Below are positions 30,155-39,285 of a stretch of DNA of 64,000 nt, one piece after another. The position numbers and the translations under genes are program-made. The stretch's first letter is position 1. Each line of letters begins with the position of its first letter. The notes beneath the pieces were generated by a model. It was not told the origin of the DNA and did not search any database. It was given only the letters and a program-made list of their open reading frames with translations. The stretch comes from Candidatus Levyibacteriota bacterium (GTDB lineage: Bacteria; Patescibacteriota; Microgenomatia; Levybacterales; GWA1-39-11), in NCBI GenBank assembly GCA_050255815.1, contig JBLMVJ010000014.1:36728-100727 (forward strand), written 5' to 3'.

Positions 30155-30832
30155 TTATTCCGAGAGGGGGTAGAGAGTTCTGAAGTAGTCCAGAGCAACT
30201 TCAGCTCCTGCTGTGGCAAACTCGGGAACCTCAGTAAACCCAAGAAGTTCTTGAATATAAGGGTCTTGAGGGTTTTTTAATCTTCCTATGAAATCTTCCA
30301 ATACTTTAATGCCAGAAGGATCTTCTTCCAGTAAGGAAGCACAACGCTTCTCCTCATCCTTAATGCTCAAAAATGTTTCAGTTTGTTCTGCTAATGATGG
30401 GATCTGGTCATCAGTAAGCAAATTAACAGTCTCATCAAAAAATTCGTTTGTCCTCTTTGCACTGGAGATTTCAGCAAAAGCAATTCTTCCTAATGTGTTA
30501 GCAAACCCAAAAGCTGCATCATAAGACATAATAAATAAGGCAAGATTTTCTTGGTCAAATGCTTTTTCTACAAATCCTTCCATAAAATCATCCAAGAAGT
30601 TTTCGACAAGGAAGTTAGCGCATGCGCCAGGCCGGGATAAACCTCTTGCAATATCGTCTGCAAGAATTGTTTTCATTGCCTGCACCCCTTCTTCTTCAGG
30701 AGGAAGGCCACCTTCCATCACATCTCTTATCATGACAACCGCCTTTGTCCTAATATCCGGCTTGAAGACAGAGCCCTCGTTGGATATTTTTGCTCTTTCT
30801 CTATGAAGACCAATAGCTCTTTCAGCTTTCAT
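30155..30832 (-). CDS. Hypothetical protein (225 aa).
   Basis: ORF with good coding appearance. No recognised motif. Confidence 0.4.
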   Translation of the reverse strand: MKAERAIGLHRERAKISNEGSVFKPDIRTKAVVMIRDVMEGGLPPEEEGVQAMKTILADDIARGLSRPGACANFLVENFLDDFMEGFVEKAFDQENLALFIMSYDAAFGFANTLGRIAFAEISSAKRTNEFFDETVNLLTDDQIPSLAEQTETFLSIKDEEKRCASLLEEDPSGIKVLEDFIGRLKNPQDPYIQELLGFTEVPEFATAGAEVALDYFRTLYPLSE

Positions 30833-30884: not shown

Positions 30885-31250
30885 TTAAGATTCGGAGGGA
30901 GTGGAGGTCTGTTCTTGGACAAGATAGGCAAAATTTCCTTTTTCGAGCCAGCCTTTGTCTCTGTCATAGAAATATTCATGATTAACAATGGCATCAGCAT
31001 TCACTAGAACCGCGTCCTTCACAATATCCCTTCTTTCAGGACTTATATCTCGCACAAATTTTCCTTTTGTTTCCTTAGGTTTATCTTCAGAAGTTTTGGG
31101 GACTATATATTTTCTCCCGGTAGTTTCTTCGAGTTGTTCAGCAGTAAGACCAGTGACTAGAACTCTTCGCGCCTTTCTCCTAAAGTCAGCCTCCGCAGTT
31201 GTTCTAATCATTCTTTCTCTAGCCCTTCTGGCGTTCCATGCTTCTAACAT
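30885..31250 (-). CDS. Hypothetical protein (121 aa).
   Basis: ORF only, with basic/acidic mixed composition. Confidence 0.35.
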   Translation of the reverse strand: MLEAWNARRARERMIRTTAEADFRRKARRVLVTGLTAEQLEETTGRKYIVPKTSEDKPKETKGKFVRDISPERRDIVKDAVLVNADAIVNHEYFYDRDKGWLEKGNFAYLVQEQTSTPSES

Positions 31251-31324: not shown

Positions 31325-33070
31325 GTGGATGATGTTGAAAAAGTAAAACAGAAAACAGATATAGTTGAGCTGATTGAAAGTTATATTCCCATTAAAAAAG
31401 CTGGGCGTAATTTTAAGGCTCCGTGTCCGTTCCATAATGAAAAATCTCCTTCATTTGTAGTATCCCCTGACCGGCAGATCTGGCACTGTTTTGGCTGTAA
31501 TAAAGGCGGGGATATTTTTACGTTTGTAGAAGAGTATGAGAAGACCACCTTTGCAGACGCATTAAAATATTTGGCACAGAAAGCAGGAGTGCAGCTCACT
31601 ACCTCTGTTGCCAGGTCTGAAGCAGAGAAGAGGAGGGATATGATTTACTCCCTGAATCTTTTGGCTGCACAGTTTTATGAATATATCCTGTTTTCTCATC
31701 CGGTTGGCAAAACCGCACTCAGGTACGTTCTGGATACAAGACGCCAGCCGGAAGCTCTACTCAAAACCTTCATGGTAGGGTATGCCCCTAATACCGGCAA
31801 TTCCCTCACCCAGTTTTTGCTGAAGAAAAAAACATACCAGCCGCAGGATCTGGTAGACGCAGGTTTGGCAATATTTGCCCATGGTAGGCTGATAGACTTT
31901 TTCCGGCATAGGATCATGTTCCCTATTACAGATCCTAGGGGAAATATTATTGCCTTTTCCGGGCGCGCCCTGAGCTCTGAGCAGATGCCTAAATATGTAA
32001 ATACCAAAGAAACCGCAGTGTACACCAAAGGAGAAACGGTGTTTGGCCTGAATCTAGCCAGGGATGAGATAAAAAAACAGGGGTCTGTGATTATTATGGA
32101 AGGTGAGTTTGACGTGATCTCAGCACACCGGGAAGGGATTGGAAACGTGGTGGCAGTAAAAGGGACAGCGTTAACAGAACAGCAGATAGAGCTGTTAAAA
32201 CGGTATGCCCAGAAGCTGGTATTTTGTTTTGATACTGATCCGGCAGGGACTACTGCCCAAAGGCGTTCTATCCAACTCATTGAGAATGCCGGCATTGTAG
32301 CCAGCGTTATCATGCTGCCAAAAGGTAAGGACCCGGATGAATTACTAAACACAGACCCGGTGGAATTCAAAAAAGCCGTGAAGGATGATGTGCATATCTA
32401 TGATTTTATTATTAACTCCGCGGTAAACCAGCATGACGTTAAAAGCGTGGATGGGAAGCGGGAGGTCCTAGCAAAAACCATTCCATTCCTGGCAGTTATA
32501 GATAATGAGGTTATTAAAGAGCATTACCTGAAGAGGTTAGCTGAAGCTTTGGATACGTCTTATGACTCTATTTTCAGGCAGTCTGAGAAAGAAAAGAAGG
32601 CTGAGCGCAAGCCGGTGGTTACCGCTTCTGTGAGCAAAAAATCCAGGGAAGAACTTCTCCCCCAGCATTTATTTTCACTACTGCTTTCCTCTACGCATCT
32701 TCTGGAGGATTTGCGCTTAGTGGATGCGGCATTGGATGGGGTAGCCTTCCCCAGTATTTCCTACCAAAAACTATTCCAGCTGCTAAAGTCAGACATAGAA
32801 AAGAATGAATTTAAATCTCTGGAAGTCTTTGCAAAAACCATACCGGCAGAATTGGTAGAAGCGTATGACGTAGCATTTTTAGCCCCGGTCCCTGAATATG
32901 ATGAGAAAAAGCTATCTGAGGAGCTGAAAAAAACAGCGCTGGAACTGAAAACATTAGCCGTCAAAAAAAGGCTTTCTGAGATTGCCGTGGAGTTGTCCCG
33001 GGAAACAAGCGCACAGACGGAAAATAAGCTTCAGGAGGAAGCCCAAACTCTTACCCAAAAACTCAAGTAA
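31325..33070 (+). CDS. dnaG: DNA primase.
   Basis: Zinc-ribbon (CPFHNEKSPSFVVSPDRQIWHCFGCNKGGD) and TOPRIM (IIMEGEFDVIS, FCFDTDPAG) motifs. Sits upstream of rpoD in the classic MMS-operon order. GTG start. Confidence 0.85.
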   Translation: MDDVEKVKQKTDIVELIESYIPIKKAGRNFKAPCPFHNEKSPSFVVSPDRQIWHCFGCNKGGDIFTFVEEYEKTTFADALKYLAQKAGVQLTTSVARSEAEKRRDMIYSLNLLAAQFYEYILFSHPVGKTALRYVLDTRRQPEALLKTFMVGYAPNTGNSLTQFLLKKKTYQPQDLVDAGLAIFAHGRLIDFFRHRIMFPITDPRGNIIAFSGRALSSEQMPKYVNTKETAVYTKGETVFGLNLARDEIKKQGSVIIMEGEFDVISAHREGIGNVVAVKGTALTEQQIELLKRYAQKLVFCFDTDPAGTTAQRRSIQLIENAGIVASVIMLPKGKDPDELLNTDPVEFKKAVKDDVHIYDFIINSAVNQHDVKSVDGKREVLAKTIPFLAVIDNEVIKEHYLKRLAEALDTSYDSIFRQSEKEKKAERKPVVTASVSKKSREELLPQHLFSLLLSSTHLLEDLRLVDAALDGVAFPSISYQKLFQLLKSDIEKNEFKSLEVFAKTIPAELVEAYDVAFLAPVPEYDEKKLSEELKKTALELKTLAVKKRLSEIAVELSRETSAQTENKLQEEAQTLTQKLK

Positions 33071-33173
33071 GTCACATACTCCAGGCTTGCTATTTAGCCT
33101 GAAAAAGCGTACAATAGACCTTAGTTTAAAACCCCAGAGGAATTTGGGGTTTGTTTTTCTGTATTAAAGAGAT

Positions 33174-34274
33174 ATGAGCACAACAGCCGCAAAAACAACC
33201 ATAAAAAGTGACCGCGTTGCCAGCCTTCTGGCAGCAGCAAAGAAAAAAGGCTATATATCCCAAGATGAAATCTTAACCTCCTTCCCAAAACCTGAAGAGC
33301 ATATCCAGGATTTAGATTTTCTCTATGACCAGCTCATTAAGAAAAATGTAGATATTTTTGAGACGGTAGAGGAAGAAAAGGAAAACCAGAAATCTATAGA
33401 GGACCTGGAAAAAGAGCTGGAAGCACTGAACATTATCCAGGGTGGCGCAGTGACTGACCCGGTCAGGATGTACCTCAAGGAAATAGGCCGTATTCCGCTT
33501 TTGACCTTTGAACAGGAAGTAGACCTGGCAAAGAGGCTGGAAAAAGGTGATATGCGCGCACGTAAGAAACTCGTGGAGTCCAATTTAAGACTGGTGGTTT
33601 CTATTGCTAAAAAGTACGTGGGTCGCGGTATGACTTTACTCGATTTGATCCAGGAAGGGAACCAGGGACTGATACGCGCGGTAGAAAAGTATGACTGGAA
33701 AAAAGGTTTTAAGTTTTCTACCTACGCCACCTGGTGGATCAGGCAGGCTATTACCCGCGCTATAGCAGACCAGGCCAGGACTATCCGTATCCCGGTCCAC
33801 ATGGTGGAAAATATTAATAGGTTTATGCGCGTGCAGAGAAAGTTAATGCAGGAGTTGGGACGCCAGCCTACCCCGGAAGAAATTTCAGATATTTTAGAAA
33901 TTGACCCAGATAAAGCGCGGGAAATTATAAAGATTTCCCAGCAGCCTGCTTCTCTGGACACTCCGGTAGGGGATGAGGAAGATTCATATCTGGGAGACTT
34001 TATTTATGACATTACCGCACCTACACTTTTTGATACCGCATCCCGTGGCCTGTTAAAAGAACAGCTCGGCTCCGTGCTTTCAACATTATCTGACAGGGAG
34101 AGAAGAGTACTGGAAGAGCGGTTTGGCCTCAGAGACGGCAAGCCAAAGACTTTGGAAGAAGTGGGCCGTATGTTTGCGGTTACCCGTGAGCGTATTAGGC
34201 AGATAGAAGCAAAAGCACTGAGAAAATTAAGGCACCCAAGTCGTGGGAACAAATTGAAAGACTACCTCGAGTAA
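33174..34274 (+). CDS. rpoD: RNA polymerase sigma factor, primary sigma-70 (compact 366 aa).
   Basis: Region 2 ([29 protein letters not shown]), region 3 and region 4.2 ([20 protein letters not shown]). Confidence 0.9.
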
Positions 34275-34332
34275 CCCGTGTTTCAGAACCTTCATTGAAA
34301 AATACTTAATTTAGTCCTATAATACCTTCTTT

Positions 34333-35061
34333 ATGGCAAAACCGGAAGCGCAGCCACAGAACGGAAAGATTGACCCCAGGTACATATTAAGTGCCACGGT
34401 TGACCCTGCGTTCAAAGAAGCTTTTATTATGGCTCCCCGGCACCTTCAGTTCCCCACCAGAAACCAGTTTGCCTTTTTAAAAGGTATTATGGGTATTAAT
34501 CCAAAAAAAGAACGGGTTGTTGTCCGGACTGTTACAGAATATACGGTCCAGACCCCGGGAGAAGGTGAGCGTCCTCTTACGTCTGCAGATGAAGAAGAAA
34601 TTATAACAGCCGCGAAAAGACTTATAAATAATGGTGCAGGAGAAAAGCCCACCAAAAAGATAACTCTTGAGAAGGCGCTTGAACTCATGGAAGAGCAGGT
34701 TATGTACAGGGTGCCTATAAGCCTGCATACACCGCTGGGTGAGAGCCAAGAGATGTTTTTAGAATCATTAGTAAGAGATAAAAGCGCAAAAGACCCGGAG
34801 ACTGCAGTAGCAGACGCCATGCTCAGAGATGATTTGGAGGCAGCTATGCGCATTGCAAGTCTTACCCCAAGAGAAAAAGATGTCCTGAGAAAAAGGAATG
34901 GTGTTTATACCGGAGTGAGCAGAACTTTAGATGAGTTAGGTACGGAATATGGGATAACCCGTGAACGGATACGCCAAATAGAGGCAAAAGCATACAATAA
35001 GATCAGGGGTAATTTTGCGGCAAGAAGAAAGTTGTTAGGATATTTATCACAACACAAATAA
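34333..35061 (+). CDS. Sigma-70 region 3.2/4-only protein with a novel N-terminal domain (paralog A).
   Basis: C-terminus [50 protein letters not shown] is near-identical to RpoD region 4.2, and ISLHTPLGESQEMFLESLVRD aligns to RpoD region 3.2 ([20 protein letters not shown]). No region 2 is present. The N-terminal ~120 aa are shared only with paralog B. Confidence 0.6.
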   Translation: MAKPEAQPQNGKIDPRYILSATVDPAFKEAFIMAPRHLQFPTRNQFAFLKGIMGINPKKERVVVRTVTEYTVQTPGEGERPLTSADEEEIITAAKRLINNGAGEKPTKKITLEKALELMEEQVMYRVPISLHTPLGESQEMFLESLVRDKSAKDPETAVADAMLRDDLEAAMRIASLTPREKDVLRKRNGVYTGVSRTLDELGTEYGITRERIRQIEAKAYNKIRGNFAARRKLLGYLSQHK

Positions 35062-35067
35062 GAAATT

Positions 35068-35757
35068 ATGACACAAGAAACAGGGAAACATATTGGTAAA
35101 GTTGATCAAAGGTATGTGTTGCCAAAAGACGGATTAGACGAAAGGTTTAAGGAATCTTTTATAACGGCCCCATCCCACCTGGAATTCCCAACCAGAAACC
35201 ATTACGCTTTTCTGGAAGGAGTAATAGGGATAAACCCTGCTCAGGAGCGTGTGCTCCCGGGTACCATTGTGGATACATGGAAACAGGGAATTATACAGGG
35301 AAATGGGAACTGGAGATTTATGAGCCCCGCAGACAAAAGGGAGTTTATGAACGCGGCAAAAGCTATTACCAATGACCGGGTTCCGGTACCTGATATAGAT
35401 ACAGCCCTGAGAATATTAGGTGATCAGGTTTATATGGTAACAGATGTGAGTCTGGACAAGCCAGCAGGAGACACTACAAAAGGTACAACCCTCATGGATT
35501 TAATTGACATTCCTGATACTTCCGACCCTGTGAAAAAAACTCTCTCTGCAGAAGATATAGAAGAGTTATTGGCAGAGTTAACGCCCAGGGAAGCAGACGT
35601 GCTGCGTAAAAGGCAGAGTATGACCCAGGAAGAAATTGGCAGGGAATACGGGGTAACCAAGCAAAGGATTGATCAAATTGAGAAAAAAGCCTACAGAAAG
35701 TTGAGGCAGCCCCACTTAAGAGAGAAAGTAGTTTCTTTGATGGAAAGGATCTCCTAA
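35068..35757 (+). CDS. Sigma-70 region 3.2/4-only protein with a novel N-terminal domain (paralog B).
   Basis: C-terminus LTPREADVLRKRQSMTQEEIGREYGVTKQRIDQIEKKAYRKLRQ (region 4.2). The N-terminus shares with paralog A the motif GK(I/V)D.RY(I/V)L...FKE.FI.AP.HL.FPTRN..AFL.G..GINP..ERV. Confidence 0.6.
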   Translation: MTQETGKHIGKVDQRYVLPKDGLDERFKESFITAPSHLEFPTRNHYAFLEGVIGINPAQERVLPGTIVDTWKQGIIQGNGNWRFMSPADKREFMNAAKAITNDRVPVPDIDTALRILGDQVYMVTDVSLDKPAGDTTKGTTLMDLIDIPDTSDPVKKTLSAEDIEELLAELTPREADVLRKRQSMTQEEIGREYGVTKQRIDQIEKKAYRKLRQPHLREKVVSLMERIS

Positions 35758-35772
35758 CCCCTCCCCAATTAC

Positions 35773-36624
35773 TTAGTGCACCAGGAGTACTCCAATAAAA
35801 ACCAGAACTGATGCAATAAGTTTTTTTAAAAGATTATCCTTTTCCCGTAATAGTATGGCTGCCAGAATAACCGTTACTACCACTTGAGTCTGGCCTATGG
35901 TACTGACCTGGGAAACCTGGGCTTTTTGTATGGCAAAATAATACGCATATGCCTGGGTACAACTGAAAAAGACCAGCGGTAGCATCTTTTTTAAAAAAGA
36001 TCTATCAGTTGCCACCTGCCATTTCTTAACAGCCTTGGGGTAACAAAATAGAAGGAGGACAAAAATTAATAGGTTAGCAATGGGCAGGTAAGACACTACA
36101 TCATACGTTTTCAGGATTATTGCATCCAGGGAAACAGCCACCCCATAGAACAGTGCGACAATGAGTGCATAAGAAGTGCCGCTGTTAAATTTAAACCCCT
36201 TCTTAATATTGGCGACCAGCATAACTGACCCCAGGATTAAAATTGCACCCAGTACTTTTTCAAAACCAAATATTTCCCTCAGGAAAAATACGGAAATAAG
36301 GATGGTTATAATCACCCTGACAGAAGTGAGGATGGTAACTTCTGAGGCCTCAATTACTTTTAATGCCTTGAAAAGGAAAATGGTCCCAAATCCCCATAGC
36401 AGCGCAGAGAGAACAAAAAGTACCAAAGTCCAGCTTAATACGGGCAGTTTAAATCCCAGGAATAGGGAAACAACGGAATATGCAATACTTAGGAAAAAGG
36501 CAAAAAGAATGGTGTAGAGAACCGGGTCGCTTTTATCATCCCTCATCAAAACCCTTTGGAGAATATTATAGATAGATACTGCAAAAACACTTATGAGGAT
36601 AAGGCTAAACCAATCCATACACAA
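35773..36624 (-). CDS. EamA/DMT-family transporter.
   Basis: 283 aa with ten TM helices in two internally repeated halves, typical of the drug/metabolite transporter superfamily. Confidence 0.65.
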   Translation of the reverse strand: MCMDWFSLILISVFAVSIYNILQRVLMRDDKSDPVLYTILFAFFLSIAYSVVSLFLGFKLPVLSWTLVLFVLSALLWGFGTIFLFKALKVIEASEVTILTSVRVIITILISVFFLREIFGFEKVLGAILILGSVMLVANIKKGFKFNSGTSYALIVALFYGVAVSLDAIILKTYDVVSYLPIANLLIFVLLLFCYPKAVKKWQVATDRSFLKKMLPLVFFSCTQAYAYYFAIQKAQVSQVSTIGQTQVVVTVILAAILLREKDNLLKKLIASVLVFIGVLLVH

Positions 36625-36681
36625 ATTATATCAGAAGGTTTATTGAAGGTAAGAATTTGCTCATGCACCGGAATGATTCCT

Positions 36682-36697
36682 TGTGATAAAAATCACT
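36682..36697. promoter_or_regulatory. CRP-type palindrome TGTGATAAAAATCACT (TGTGA-N6-TCACt), centred about 40 bp upstream of the 36731 start codon.
   Basis: Read directly from the sequence. One mismatch from the E. coli CRP consensus half-sites. Confidence 0.4.
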
Positions 36698-36730
36698 GAT
36701 ATAAAAGTAATTTTTCAATATAAATGACTT

Positions 36731-37399
36731 ATGAAATATATTATCGTTGTTTTGGTGCTAGCTCTGCTGGAGTTATCAGTTTCTACTGTTTTTGCACAAG
36801 GCGTTCACGCGCCCGGGACAGGGATTGTTAACCCCACTACAAAAGGTCAAAGTCAGGGGACAGGAAATGCTTTGCAAGCGACACCCTCATTGAAAATTAC
36901 CCCCACTCAAGACCAAGACAGGTTGAGGACATTTCTTAGAGACCAAGAGCAAGTCATGGACAAAGATAGGGATAGACTACAAGAAAAAGATAAAATTATG
37001 CAGCAGGATCAAGACCGAACAATGCTTGGAGCAAAAGTTTTGATTCAAGCAAGGGAAGATAATAATGAACTAGACTCTCAAGTAGAAAACCTGGCAACTC
37101 AAGTTAAGAATACAATACAAAATACTTTAAAATTGGAGCAACAAATTAGAGACCGTAACTTTTTAATGCGCCTTTTTTGGGGAGGAGATAAGAAGACCGG
37201 ACAGGAACTTTATCAGATAACAACGCAAAACAAAGACCGTATCAGAGAAATGGAACGATTGGTAGAAAGTTGCAACTGCAATGAAGAAACAAAAAATCTT
37301 CTACGTGAACAGTTAAGGATTATGGATCAGGAGCAAATGCGGTTGAATAATATGGCACAAGAAGAAATTAGAAAAAAGGGATTATTCTCTTGGTTTTAG
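36731..37399 (+). CDS. Secreted coiled-coil protein rich in D/Q/R/E/K.
   Basis: Signal peptide (MKYIIVVLVLALLELSVSTVFAQG), then low-complexity repeats (QDQDRLRTFLRDQEQVMDKDRDRLQEKDKIMQQDQDRTM) and heptad-like coiled-coil. Confidence 0.5.
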   Translation: MKYIIVVLVLALLELSVSTVFAQGVHAPGTGIVNPTTKGQSQGTGNALQATPSLKITPTQDQDRLRTFLRDQEQVMDKDRDRLQEKDKIMQQDQDRTMLGAKVLIQAREDNNELDSQVENLATQVKNTIQNTLKLEQQIRDRNFLMRLFWGGDKKTGQELYQITTQNKDRIREMERLVESCNCNEETKNLLREQLRIMDQEQMRLNNMAQEEIRKKGLFSWF

Positions 37400-37653
37400 A
37401 TCTCCCATTTTTAACTCCGCATGGTTGTAGATTAAATCTACCGGATTTTGAATAATACTTGGGGAACCTTTTATTGAGCAGGAAGAAATTCAACAATCCA
37501 CAGTTCTTGTTTTAAAGCGCCACTTATAGCATCATGAACTAACTCTCTGCGATTATATGTAGAAATAACGATGCTTATTAAGGATGACATGGAATTATAT
37601 CAGAAGGTTCGTATAGTCCATGAAGAGGTGTTAAAAAATGAGGCTAATTTTAT

Positions 37654-37728
37654 TGGCTCCCCCGCGAGGATTCGAACCTCGAACCTTAAAGTTAACAGCT
37701 TTCTGCTCTACCATTGAGCTACAGGGGA
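37654..37728 (-). tRNA. tRNA-Asn (anticodon GTT).
   Basis: Manual fold of the reverse complement gives TCCCCTG/TA/GCTC-AATGGTA-GAGC/A/GAAAG-CTGTTAA-CTTTA/AGGTT/CGAGG-TTCGAAT-CCTCG/CGGGGGA/G/CCA. The T-loop GGTTCGAATCC is canonical, the anticodon loop is CT-GTT-AA, and CCA is encoded. Confidence 0.85.
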
Positions 37729-37784
37729 ATGCTCATTCCATCTCAACTCTGCAGTTAAGATTCTTACGATTATACTCAATTACG

Positions 37785-37808
37785 CACAAAATTCCAATAT
37801 CCTAATTT
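37785..37808. repeat. 24-nt direct repeat, copy 1 (cacaaaattccaatatcctaattt), upstream of the 37857 gene.
   Basis: Exact 24/24 match to copy 2 at 38613..38636. Confidence 0.6.
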
Positions 37809-37856
37809 GGGGCGTAATGAGAACAAAGCATTATAGCCTTTGATATAATCCAAGAA

Positions 37857-38318
37857 ATGACCACAGAAGACGTATTAAAAATTGTGGATTACATTGCTAC
37901 AGAATGTAATAGGTTAAAGAATAAGTACATAGAGAATTCTTTAGAGGCTGATTATGTGTGTATATTTTCTCATAGTGAAGATGAATATAATCAGTTACTA
38001 GAGGTAGCTAAAACGTTAGGTAAAATTGCTACAGATACTCCCACAGGTCCAGTATTTGCTTTTACCACCCGCCCAGAAACGGTTATGGGTAGTCCAAAAC
38101 TGTTAAAAATCAGAAAGCCGGATGAAACCAGGGCACAGAGAGGAGACTTGGATCTAAATACAAATTATCCCGAGTTTAAGAAGAAGTATTTAAACAATAA
38201 TGAGTTCACTCTTATAGTGAGGCCCGACTTTGAAATGATTGAGTTAAAAGATGACTCTTTTGATGCGCTGCTTTATTTTTCAAGTATCCCACTCAGTAAG
38301 CAATTAGGGATAACATAG
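37857..38318 (+). CDS. Hypothetical protein (153 aa).
   Basis: ORF preceded by the 24-nt motif and a TATAAT-like box (ttgatataatcc). No family recognised. Confidence 0.5.
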   Translation: MTTEDVLKIVDYIATECNRLKNKYIENSLEADYVCIFSHSEDEYNQLLEVAKTLGKIATDTPTGPVFAFTTRPETVMGSPKLLKIRKPDETRAQRGDLDLNTNYPEFKKKYLNNNEFTLIVRPDFEMIELKDDSFDALLYFSSIPLSKQLGIT

Positions 38319-38322
38319 ACAG

Positions 38323-38382
38323 GATTTAGGGGTTTGGGATGAGGGATACCAGGTGGTCTAGGAGTTCTTGGTAGTCACACAT
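38323..38382 (-). pseudogene. Remnant of a GH130-gene 3' end, encoding [19 protein letters not shown].
   Basis: Lies in frame directly after the TAG stop of the 68-aa ORF. About 55 nt are homologous to the 3' end of the GH130 gene at 39321..40343 ([17 protein letters not shown]), including the 34-nt repeat 38351..38384. Confidence 0.4.
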
Positions 38383-38384
38383 AG
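38351..38384. repeat. 34-nt repeat, copy 1 (aggtggtctaggagttcttggtagtcacacatag).
   Basis: 33/34 match to 39343..39376, which lies within the 3' coding end of the GH130 gene. Confidence 0.6.
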
Positions 38385-38385
38385 G

Positions 38386-38592
38386 CTATTCTTTGTGCTC
38401 AACTTTTAAGATTACATTCTTTTTCACCCCTGCAACCGCGGGAAGCAAATGGTTTAAGACCTGTTCAGCAGTCATCCTAAACTCTCTTCCCCTAGCTGAA
38501 ATCTTTACCCACCCTTCTTTATCCCTAAAATAACGTTCAGTGAAGTTTTTAGTTCCTATAAAAATGGTATAGCAGTCATTTGTCAGCTTCAT
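38386..38592 (-). CDS. Small hypothetical protein (68 aa). Possibly the 5' part of a disrupted gene.
   Basis: ORF only. It is followed in the same frame by a stop and then the GH130 C-terminal remnant. Confidence 0.3.
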   Translation of the reverse strand: MKLTNDCYTIFIGTKNFTERYFRDKEGWVKISARGREFRMTAEQVLNHLLPAVAGVKKNVILKVEHKE

Positions 38593-38612
38593 GCTTTGAT
38601 TTTAGCACAGGA

Positions 38613-38636
38613 CACAAAATTCCAATATCCTAATTT
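38613..38636. repeat. 24-nt direct repeat, copy 2, upstream of the 38698 gene.
   Basis: Exact match to 37785..37808. Followed by a TATAAT-like box (tttattataatc). Confidence 0.6.
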
Positions 38637-38697
38637 CATAAATCTAAAACATCTTAGGTCTCAGATTCCCTTCAGGACTTTATTATAATCTCTTGGA

Positions 38698-39285
38698 ATG
38701 AGAAGAATTATTACCACTACCATGATTACGCTGGATGGTGTTATGCAAGCTCCTGGTGTTTCTAAAGAAGATGAGAGTGAAGGTTTCAAATACGGAGGAT
38801 GGCAGGTGGGGTGGGATAAAGAAGCAGACGCAATAACAGACAGAATTCAAGCAGAACCTTTGGACCTACTCTTTGGAAGACGTACTTATGATATTTTTGC
38901 CGGATATTGGCCGCACCATGAAGATGAACCACATTGGGGAAAACCGTATAGTAAGGCGAAAAAGTATGTAGTTTCTCATAAGCCGGTTAAGCTACCATGG
39001 AAAAACTCCCAACTTATCTCAGGAGATGTTGTGGGTGAAATTAAAAAACTAAAGGATTCAAATGGTCCAAACCTTTGGGTGTGGGGCAGTAGCTCTCTTA
39101 TTCAAACACTGCTTAAAAATAACCTCATTGATAGAATGTATCTCTGGATATTTCCCCTTACTATTGGTACTGGTAAAAAACTATTCGCAGAAGGCACAAT
39201 TCCGGAGCGCTTTAAAATGGTGGATGGGAAAATTACCTCAAACGGTATTATATTTGCAGCCTATGAACCATCAACTCCTCTTTAG
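38698..39285 (+). CDS. Dihydrofolate-reductase-like protein (RibD C-terminal domain family).
   Basis: MRRIITTTMITLDGVMQAPG...FGRRTYDIFAGYWP...LWVWGSSSLIQTLLKNNLIDRMYLWIFPLTIGTGKKLF is typical of the bacterial RibD_C/DHFR-like family. A paralog lies at 51999..52559. Confidence 0.7.
   Translation: MRRIITTTMITLDGVMQAPGVSKEDESEGFKYGGWQVGWDKEADAITDRIQAEPLDLLFGRRTYDIFAGYWPHHEDEPHWGKPYSKAKKYVVSHKPVKLPWKNSQLISGDVVGEIKKLKDSNGPNLWVWGSSSLIQTLLKNNLIDRMYLWIFPLTIGTGKKLFAEGTIPERFKMVDGKITSNGIIFAAYEPSTPL

Follow-up and report, generated by a model that had tools for sequence, protein, structure and literature searches.

A sigma-70-derived protein family without region 2 encoded beside rpoD in Candidatus Levyibacteriota

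Isolated region 4 of a sigma factor (σ4) binds −35 DNA and the β-flap of RNA polymerase (RNAP), region 3.2 extends toward the active site, and region 2 (σ2) is required for binding to the β′ coiled-coil and for melting of the −10 element. To our knowledge, every known bacterial sigma-70-type factor relies on σ2 for core binding and DNA opening. In Bacillus subtilis the two parts are carried on separate polypeptides, σ4 by SigO and σ2 by RsoA (PMC8103513, PMC7826278). Gp33 of phage T4 occupies the β-flap site of σ4 and alone represses basal transcription, and the gp55/gp33 pair has been described as a split sigma (PMC2988020). A sigma-derived domain can also be reused outside initiation, as in the sigma mimicry of PhyR (PMC8103513). 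Here we describe two tandem genes, A and B, that follow rpoD in a 64-kb stretch of contig JBLMVJ010000014.1, referred to below as the window. The host is a metagenome-assembled genome (MAG) of Candidatus Levyibacteriota (candidate phyla radiation, CPR; Microgenomates), as taken from the GenBank names on proteins A and B. Both genes encode members of a family in which σ4 and region 3.2 are kept and σ2 is lacking. A conserved protein with something new in place of σ2, but with the sigma finger and the −35 reading head of the housekeeping sigma, would be a rare case. Transcriptional regulation in CPR/Patescibacteria is, as far as we know, almost unstudied, and the family offers a concrete handle on it.

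The sigma-derived part of A and B is confined to the C-terminal half. Pfam Sigma70_r4 matches both proteins above its gathering score (E = 7.4e-14, aa 174–225 in A; E = 6.5e-13, aa 167–214 in B) and Sigma70_r3 matches A below threshold (E = 5e-4, aa 110–157), while the models for regions 2 and 1.2 match neither protein even at E ≤ 1. Alignments to the NCBIfam RpoD models begin only at about residue 95 in A and 125 in B. σA/RpoD chains in the PDB align with residues 94–238 of A (E about 1e-20), region-4 fragments there are matched at E 1e-10 to 1e-12, and by Foldseek about 160 columns of A (roughly residues 75–242) align with σA chains of RNAP initiation complexes. The strings PISLHTPLGE of A and DVSLDKPAGD of B both align to RpoD region 3.2. 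This anchor is conserved family-wide, S130 and L143 of A being nearly invariant, and its acidic tip is variable. Set beside a canonical sigma-70 factor, the proteins have the helix-turn-helix (HTH) of σ4/4.2 and the region 3.2 linker and lack σ2. Pfam finds no receiver domain in A or B, and the LuxR/GerE-type HTH model GerE matches B only, below threshold (E = 0.1; 12.7 bits, where 23.5 are required). An earlier note, made by a model from the letters of the window, had proposed two tandem paralogous open reading frames (ORFs) downstream of rpoD whose products have regions 3.2 and 4 without region 2. Pfam, NCBIfam and PDB alignments bear this out; the coordinates match, every protein string quoted in the note is present in the ORFs, and A and B are paralogous (41% identity across 220 aa, E = 8e-46). 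Their GenBank annotation is generic only: 'sigma factor-like helix-turn-helix DNA-binding protein [Candidatus Levyibacteriota bacterium]' for A and 'sigma-70 family RNA polymerase sigma factor' for B (MGE5041695.1).

The anatomy of A was drawn from a 13-sequence family alignment and two AlphaFold2 runs. After a variable tail (aa 1–10) comes a novel motif (aa 11–62), referred to here as the N-motif, followed by a variable β-hairpin (aa 71–81) and two helices (84–101 and 112–126) that represent sigma region 3 in degenerate form. The region 3.2 anchor comes next, and last comes region 4, which is predicted with a local confidence score (pLDDT) of 85–96. The same note had described a novel N-terminal domain of about 120 aa. 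Its novelty stands and its length does not: the helices 84–101 and 112–126 are sigma-derived and the Foldseek alignment starts at about residue 75, so the new part comprises about 80 aa (residues ~1–82, core 11–62), and degenerate region 3 takes up residues ~84–127. The consensus of the N-motif is KIDPRYxLAxDIDPxFKESFINAPxHLxFPTRNxxAFLxGVMGIDPxKER. It is rich in aromatic and basic residues (Y17, F27, F31, H37, F40, R43 and F48 in A), and AlphaFold2 predicts, with modest confidence, two short helices at 25–33 and 42–52. No relative of the motif was found in Pfam, NCBIfam, PHROGs, PADLOC or in the fold databases searched.

MAFFT placed the N-motif beneath RpoD regions 2.2–2.4, and the idea of a hidden σ2 was therefore tested directly. 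When the N-terminal family profile was compared by hhalign with a profile of 80 RpoD sequences, the probability was below 3% for regions 1.2–2. Against whole RpoD, region 3 and the family's own C-terminus the probability was below 1%, and a σ2 hidden Markov model (HMM) with all filters off scored the family at less than 3 bits. A complete but divergent region 2 was thus found in A and B by none of Pfam, hhalign and the σ2 HMM. Two other origins of the N-terminal domain were rejected. As an internal repeat of region 3.1 it is represented by a BLAST match of GINPKKERVVV at E = 1.8 and a hhalign probability below 1%; as an overprinted, frameshifted rpoD region 2 it reaches at best 1.6 bits when the N-motif HMM is compared with the six rpoD frames. 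Nor are A and B one frameshifted sigma gene, an alternative raised in the earlier note, because each is a complete family member that aligns end to end with 11 other full-length members. Judged from sequence, a motif of about 50 residues, new and under strong constraint, takes the place of regions 1.1 to 2 in this family.

When 1.84 billion representative proteins were searched exhaustively with the N-terminal profile, 13 were matched, 12 of them real. The remaining one (P0130, 1996 aa), considered as a second context of the motif, is an artefact: numerous weak SPSHLDYP repeats inflate the score of this repeat protein. The 12 real clusters have a common architecture and a length of 218–247 aa, and each 90%-identity cluster has a single member. 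The N-motif is therefore not confined to the two paralogs, as had been supposed, since 11 further clusters possess it. Some database proteins of 157–158 aa (P0003, P0017, P0061, P0101; start MVETINKL) looked like natural analogues with σ3 and σ4 only and were rejected; the case at locus L019 (2995–4474) is a frameshifted rpoD with an ambiguous base. Only 2 of 185,579 GTDB species representatives have the family, and it was not found in IMG/VR, in JGI metagenome contigs or in phage and plasmid collections. Its sole defence-system match is the generic sigma part of MzaA. A phage, plasmid or defence origin was rejected, as nothing was found in IMG/VR or the phage and plasmid collections and the N-terminal domain has no match in PHROGs or PADLOC. 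We found no description of such proteins in CPR in the literature, and the layout of region 4 with a novel N-terminal domain belongs to no described family that we could find there, as the earlier note had suspected. The family is rare, undescribed and lineage-restricted. The two GTDB representative MAGs, both with P0125, are titled 'uncultured Gammaproteobacteria' (L015, CAYMYC010000002.1; L016, CAZMGC010000062.1). This title is probably wrong, because their RpoD is 94% identical to RpoD of the window and the ComM-dnaG-rpoD synteny is the same.

Conservation within the family is concentrated in two segments. Mean pairwise identity is 58% in the N-motif (aa 11–62), the best-conserved segment of all, and 55% in region 4.2, compared with 34% for the whole protein; regions 4.1 and 3.2 reach 36% and 30%, and the σ3-like helices 21%. 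The N-motif and region 4.2 are thus two modules under strong constraint. The ratio of nonsynonymous to synonymous substitution rates (dN/dS) is 0.14–0.47 where estimable and below 1 everywhere measured, with dS near saturation. RpoD among the family loci is 94–99% identical in amino acids and only 76–80% in DNA, so the family evolves far faster than RpoD of the same genomes. Specifically, dN is 0.4–0.6 for the family and 0.075 for RpoD, i.e. 6–8 times faster evolution outside region 4.2.

Residues R584, E585, R586, R588 and Q589 of E. coli σ70 we take to be its −35 contacts. Equivalents of all five are kept in 10 of 13 family members, A included. In B the five positions read K, Q, R, D and Q, three being changed (R584K, E585Q, R588D), and the loop between regions 4.1 and 4.2 is shortened. 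Gene conversion with rpoD was considered as the cause of the RpoD-like helix and rejected by DNA comparison: a family gene shows in its region 4.2 DNA no greater similarity to the rpoD with which it shares a genome than to rpoD genes from elsewhere. The RpoD-like helix is therefore maintained by selection at the protein level.

Linkage to rpoD, adjacent or within two genes, recurs in related genomes and was seen in 10 of the 12 family lineages (the A–B pair of the window and 11 other clusters); P0002 and P0123 are on short contigs without rpoD in view. The gene rpoD is directly upstream in the window and at the loci of P0125, P0122, P0124, P0126, P0131, P0128 and P0129, whereas a resistance-nodulation-division (RND) efflux pair intervenes at the P0127 locus and a small membrane protein at the P0132 locus. 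In the window the gap between rpoD and A is 58 nt. It contains the best promoter-like site between 31000 and 37000, and the −10 box of this site ends 9 nt before the ATG of A, a geometry of the leaderless type. The arrangement TTGnnn-17/18-TATAAT, ending 7–11 nt ahead of the ATG, was present in 10 of the 10 loci examined. No promoter of its own was found for ORF B. A and B form, as predicted from this promoter, a transcription unit of their own beside rpoD. The genes had earlier been assigned to a dnaG-rpoD operon; they are adjacent to rpoD, not demonstrably in its operon, and have a strong promoter of their own.

How do these proteins compare with the described systems? Homology between RpoD/SigA and the family extends from degenerate region 3 through the region 3.2 anchor to region 4, and the −35-contact residues are the same in most members. 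The family differs from RpoD by lacking regions 1.1, 1.2 and 2, by the unrelated 50-residue motif found instead and by its much faster evolution. With SigO-RsoA (YvrI-YvrHa) it shares a σ4-bearing polypeptide without a working σ2. The N-terminus of SigO is reportedly the interface to its partner, a result attributed to MacLellan et al. 2009. However, rsoA lies in the sigO operon and no σ2-like ORF accompanies the half-sigma genes. The σ4 of the family is also RpoD-like rather than like that of extracytoplasmic function (ECF) or group-3 sigma factors, and no SigO-specific model was among the 25 NCBIfam matches listed per protein. The repression exerted by gp33 alone resembles the behaviour predicted for a half-sigma without σ2. 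Yet gp33 has no sigma homology and does not read DNA, whereas the half-sigma is a true σ4 homolog with an intact recognition helix and is chromosomal, not phage-borne. PhyR has degenerate σ2 and σ4 plus a receiver; the half-sigma has neither σ2 nor receiver, and its DNA-contact residues are conserved. The family is a sigma-70 derivative, a natural 'half sigma', and not a relative of gp33, PhyR or GerE.

We tentatively propose that the half-sigma is a core-docking, −35-reading pseudo-sigma that competes with or modulates RpoD, the likeliest of the readings considered here, though one that we would sooner expect to see revised than to see stand. Such a protein would dock on the RNAP core where the C-terminal half of RpoD sits, at the β-flap and in the RNA-exit/active-site channel, and would read −35-type hexamers, those of the RpoD type by A and those of an altered type by B. 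With σ2 absent, it would neither bind the β′ clamp helices in the canonical way nor melt the −10 element, and would act on RpoD-dependent initiation by occupying or poising promoters. The N-motif may provide a second contact, to the core, to RpoD or to a regulator. That it binds the core and −35 DNA and competes in this way is what established sigma biology would lead one to expect, the β-flap contact being predicted from σ4 homology only. In favour of the proposal are the homology of σ4 and the region 3.2 anchor to RpoD, the −35 contacts retained by selection in most members, the lack of a σ2-only partner ORF in the window and the fetched loci, the two constrained modules with dN/dS below 1, and the recurrent linkage to rpoD. 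Several points weigh against this proposal. A pure competitor has no obvious need for a conserved finger anchor or a highly constrained N-motif, which hints at a productive or regulated role. The altered helices of B and of the second paralogs at two other loci (L010 and L014) look like diversification of promoter or operator specificity and not like global competition. As the σ3 and region 3.2 segments are only 21–30% conserved, docking on the core in the manner of a sigma factor is not guaranteed. Finally, the linkage to rpoD may simply record the birthplace of the gene. It is chiefly because the N-motif is so strongly conserved and the finger anchor is retained that we do not favour simple competition more strongly.

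A role as sigma mimic, anti-sigma or repressor, as put forward in the earlier note, would be matched by the data about equally well as a role as the σ4 half of a split or unorthodox sigma. The half-sigma would then take part in productive initiation, either with a partner encoded elsewhere or with the N-motif replacing σ2; we regard this as possible, if doubtful. Retention of the region 3.2 anchor together with σ4 is what one expects of a participant in initiation, and SigO-RsoA and T4 gp55/gp33 are precedents. The N-motif is as conserved as region 4.2, and its aromatic and basic residues would suit an interface to protein or to single-stranded DNA. Moreover, the second paralogs alter the −35 reading head and keep the rest, in the way that alternative sigmas diversify. 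On the other hand, the σ2 HMM matches RpoD only, in the 64-kb window and in 18 fetched loci, so that no ORF for a σ2-only partner is encoded in the window or beside any family gene; sigO and rsoA, by contrast, lie in one operon. The N-motif has no similarity to σ2 in sequence or fold and consists of only two short predicted helices of modest confidence. The housekeeping −35 reading head is exact in most members, which would be unusual for a sigma with a regulon of its own. What chiefly keeps us from favouring a productive sigma is that no σ2-like sequence or fold and no σ2-like partner gene were found. A stronger form of the idea, which we consider quite improbable, is that the N-motif is a minimal substitute for σ2 that docks on the β′ clamp or on σ2 of RpoD and allows promoter opening. 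The family would then be a sigma without the σ2 fold that evolved within CPR and diversifies by tandem duplication with changes of the −35 head. If this is true, it represents a new structural class of bacterial initiation factor. Both a competitor or modulator of the primary sigma and an unorthodox or split sigma would show promoter recognition uncoupled from melting. The impact is limited, given 12 clusters in 1.84 billion representatives, uncultivated hosts and the fact that SigO-RsoA and gp33/gp55 already establish split and half sigmas.

It is rather unlikely that the family acts without the core altogether, the HTH of σ4 serving as a free-standing repressor or activator and the N-motif serving oligomerisation (A–B heterodimers or homodimers) or the sensing of a ligand or partner. 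Repeated tandem pairs (A and B in the window, and those at L010 and L014) would fit hetero-oligomers, but most genomes have a single copy. The recognition helix has diverged in the second copies, and the weakly conserved σ3 and region 3.2 segments (21–30%) could be a mere linker. For a linker it is unexpected, however, that the SLDxP...L..F anchor is still RpoD-like after divergence to about 35% identity. Variable stress and detoxification genes always lie just downstream and could be targets, yet inspection by eye revealed no −35 boxes repeated in an operator-like arrangement near the genes, and the GerE/LuxR-type models stay below threshold.

We consider it very unlikely that the proteins are decoys, i.e. 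region-4 look-alikes that protect RpoD by absorbing a σ4-targeting factor (for instance an anti-sigma of phage origin, or a protein like Rsd or AsiA). Sigma mimicry has a precedent in PhyR (PMC8103513), the surface of region 4.2 is kept RpoD-like by selection, and the faster evolution elsewhere in the sequence would be compatible with an arms race. Still, dN/dS stays below 1, the context holds no phage signal, and the defence-system searches return nothing besides the generic part of MzaA. A decoy role also leaves the N-motif, the region 3.2 anchor and the paralogs with a non-RpoD helix unexplained. That the genes are decaying, functionless remnants of an rpoD duplication, as their position next to rpoD, the orphan copies of the rpoD 3′ end in the L006 and L018 spacers and the fast evolution of the family might suggest, is contradicted by the conservation pattern and effectively refuted: the ORFs are intact and of constant length (218–247 aa) in 12 clusters, two modules are conserved at 55–58%, dN/dS is 0.14–0.47, and in 10 loci a promoter stands at a fixed distance from the ATG.

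Regarding the origin of the family, rpoD is the probable source of its C-terminal half (the rpoD product of the window matches NCBIfam RpoD at E = 6.6e-158), and the family probably arose by partial tandem duplication of rpoD. At L006:122–145 and L018:58–81, in the stretch that separates rpoD from the family gene, the final eight codons of rpoD (KLKDYLE*) occur a second time as an orphan copy. In the window the region around the −35 box of the A promoter (ATTGAAAAATAC, 34294–34317) resembles the rpoD terminus (AAATTGAAAGACTAC, 34251–34274). These repeated rpoD ends look like footprints of partial tandem duplication; the orphan copies would fit both a duplication-prone locus and the view that the family derives from the 3′ half of rpoD. 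The family genes themselves have also been duplicated. Second paralogs follow P0127 and P0131; they are much more divergent, have no IDPRYxL motif start and are not detected by the N-terminal HMM. They keep AP(S)HL...R...A...P and the SLDTP anchor, and have an ECF-like σ4 with a non-RpoD recognition helix. A neighbour-joining tree, which has no bootstrap support, unites B with A and P0002 and places the second paralogs of L010 and L014 on deep branches. Tandem duplication with a changed DNA-reading head has therefore happened at least two times.

Table 1. Positions of features at the rpoD-A-B locus and at related loci. Coordinates are those of the window unless a fetched locus (L number) is named.
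Feature	Position	Strand	Basis or remark
dnaG	31325-33070		upstream of rpoD
rpoD, complete primary sigma, 366 aa	33174..34274	+	Pfam r1.1, r1.2, r2, r3 and r4 all significant
Promoter of A-B, TTGAAA, 17 nt, TATAAT	34295..34323	+	predicted; 11 of 12 positions matched
ORF A, half-sigma protein, 242 aa	34333-35061	+	
A, N-motif, aa 11-62, GKIDPRYIL...APRHLQFPTRNQFAFLKGIMGINPKKER	34363..34518	+	
A, degenerate sigma region 3, aa 83-127, two helices	34579..34713	+	Pfam Sigma70_r3; RpoD_Cterm from aa 95
A, region 3.2 (sigma finger) anchor, PISLHTPLGESQE..L	34714..34782	+	aligned to RpoD
A, sigma region 4 (4.1 and 4.2 HTH)	34843..35010	+	Pfam Sigma70_r4
ORF B, tandem paralog, 229 aa	35068-35757	+	begins 6 nt past the stop codon of A
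B, N-motif, aa 10-62	35095..35253	+	column-for-column alignment with A and the family motif
B, region 3.2 anchor, DVSLDKPAGD...	35440..35508	+	
B, sigma region 4, recognition helix VTKQRIDQIEKK	35566..35709	+	Pfam Sigma70_r4
Downstream island, window	35773-39285		
Downstream island, L002	L002:8743-15141		
Downstream island, L006	L006:870-1907		
Downstream island, L008	L008:1330-2534		
Downstream island, L009	L009:904-4221		
Downstream island, L010	L010:6857-7204		
Downstream island, L012	L012:1531-2031		
Second paralog after P0127, 213 aa	L010:6209-6850		
Second paralog after P0131, 209 aa	L014:887-1516		

A variable island abuts the conserved dnaG-rpoD block (Table 1). Downstream of the family gene there is a genome-specific set of small stress and detoxification genes, mostly on the opposite strand; at single-copy loci the next gene is on the opposite strand. 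Glyoxalase (PF00903) occurs in six loci, and DUF1801, DUF1428, AHSA1, RibD_C and GNAT genes are also present, as is a serine recombinase in L002. Leaderless geometry is not particular to the family genes. A −10-like hexamer (at least 5 of 6 positions identical to TATAAT) ends 6–9 nt before the start codon in about 15 of the 54 genes of the window, for example at the starts 31325 (dnaG), 34333, 6500, 8203, 20567, 25447, 30155 (−), 37857, 38698, 40340 (−) and 42318. With the same geometry at so many genes, the organism appears to use leaderless transcripts widely. Ahead of the rpoD start (33174), positions 33087–33152 contain a weak promoter-like site (33087–33115) followed by a terminator-like hairpin (33129–33152) and a T-run; the hairpin could be a terminator of dnaG or an attenuator in the rpoD leader. 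Four ORFs around the locus have no Pfam family: 30155–30832 (−), 30885–31250 (−), 36731–37399 (+) and 37857–38318 (+). The third of these resembles a secreted coiled-coil protein, and the other three have a −10 box of the leaderless type.

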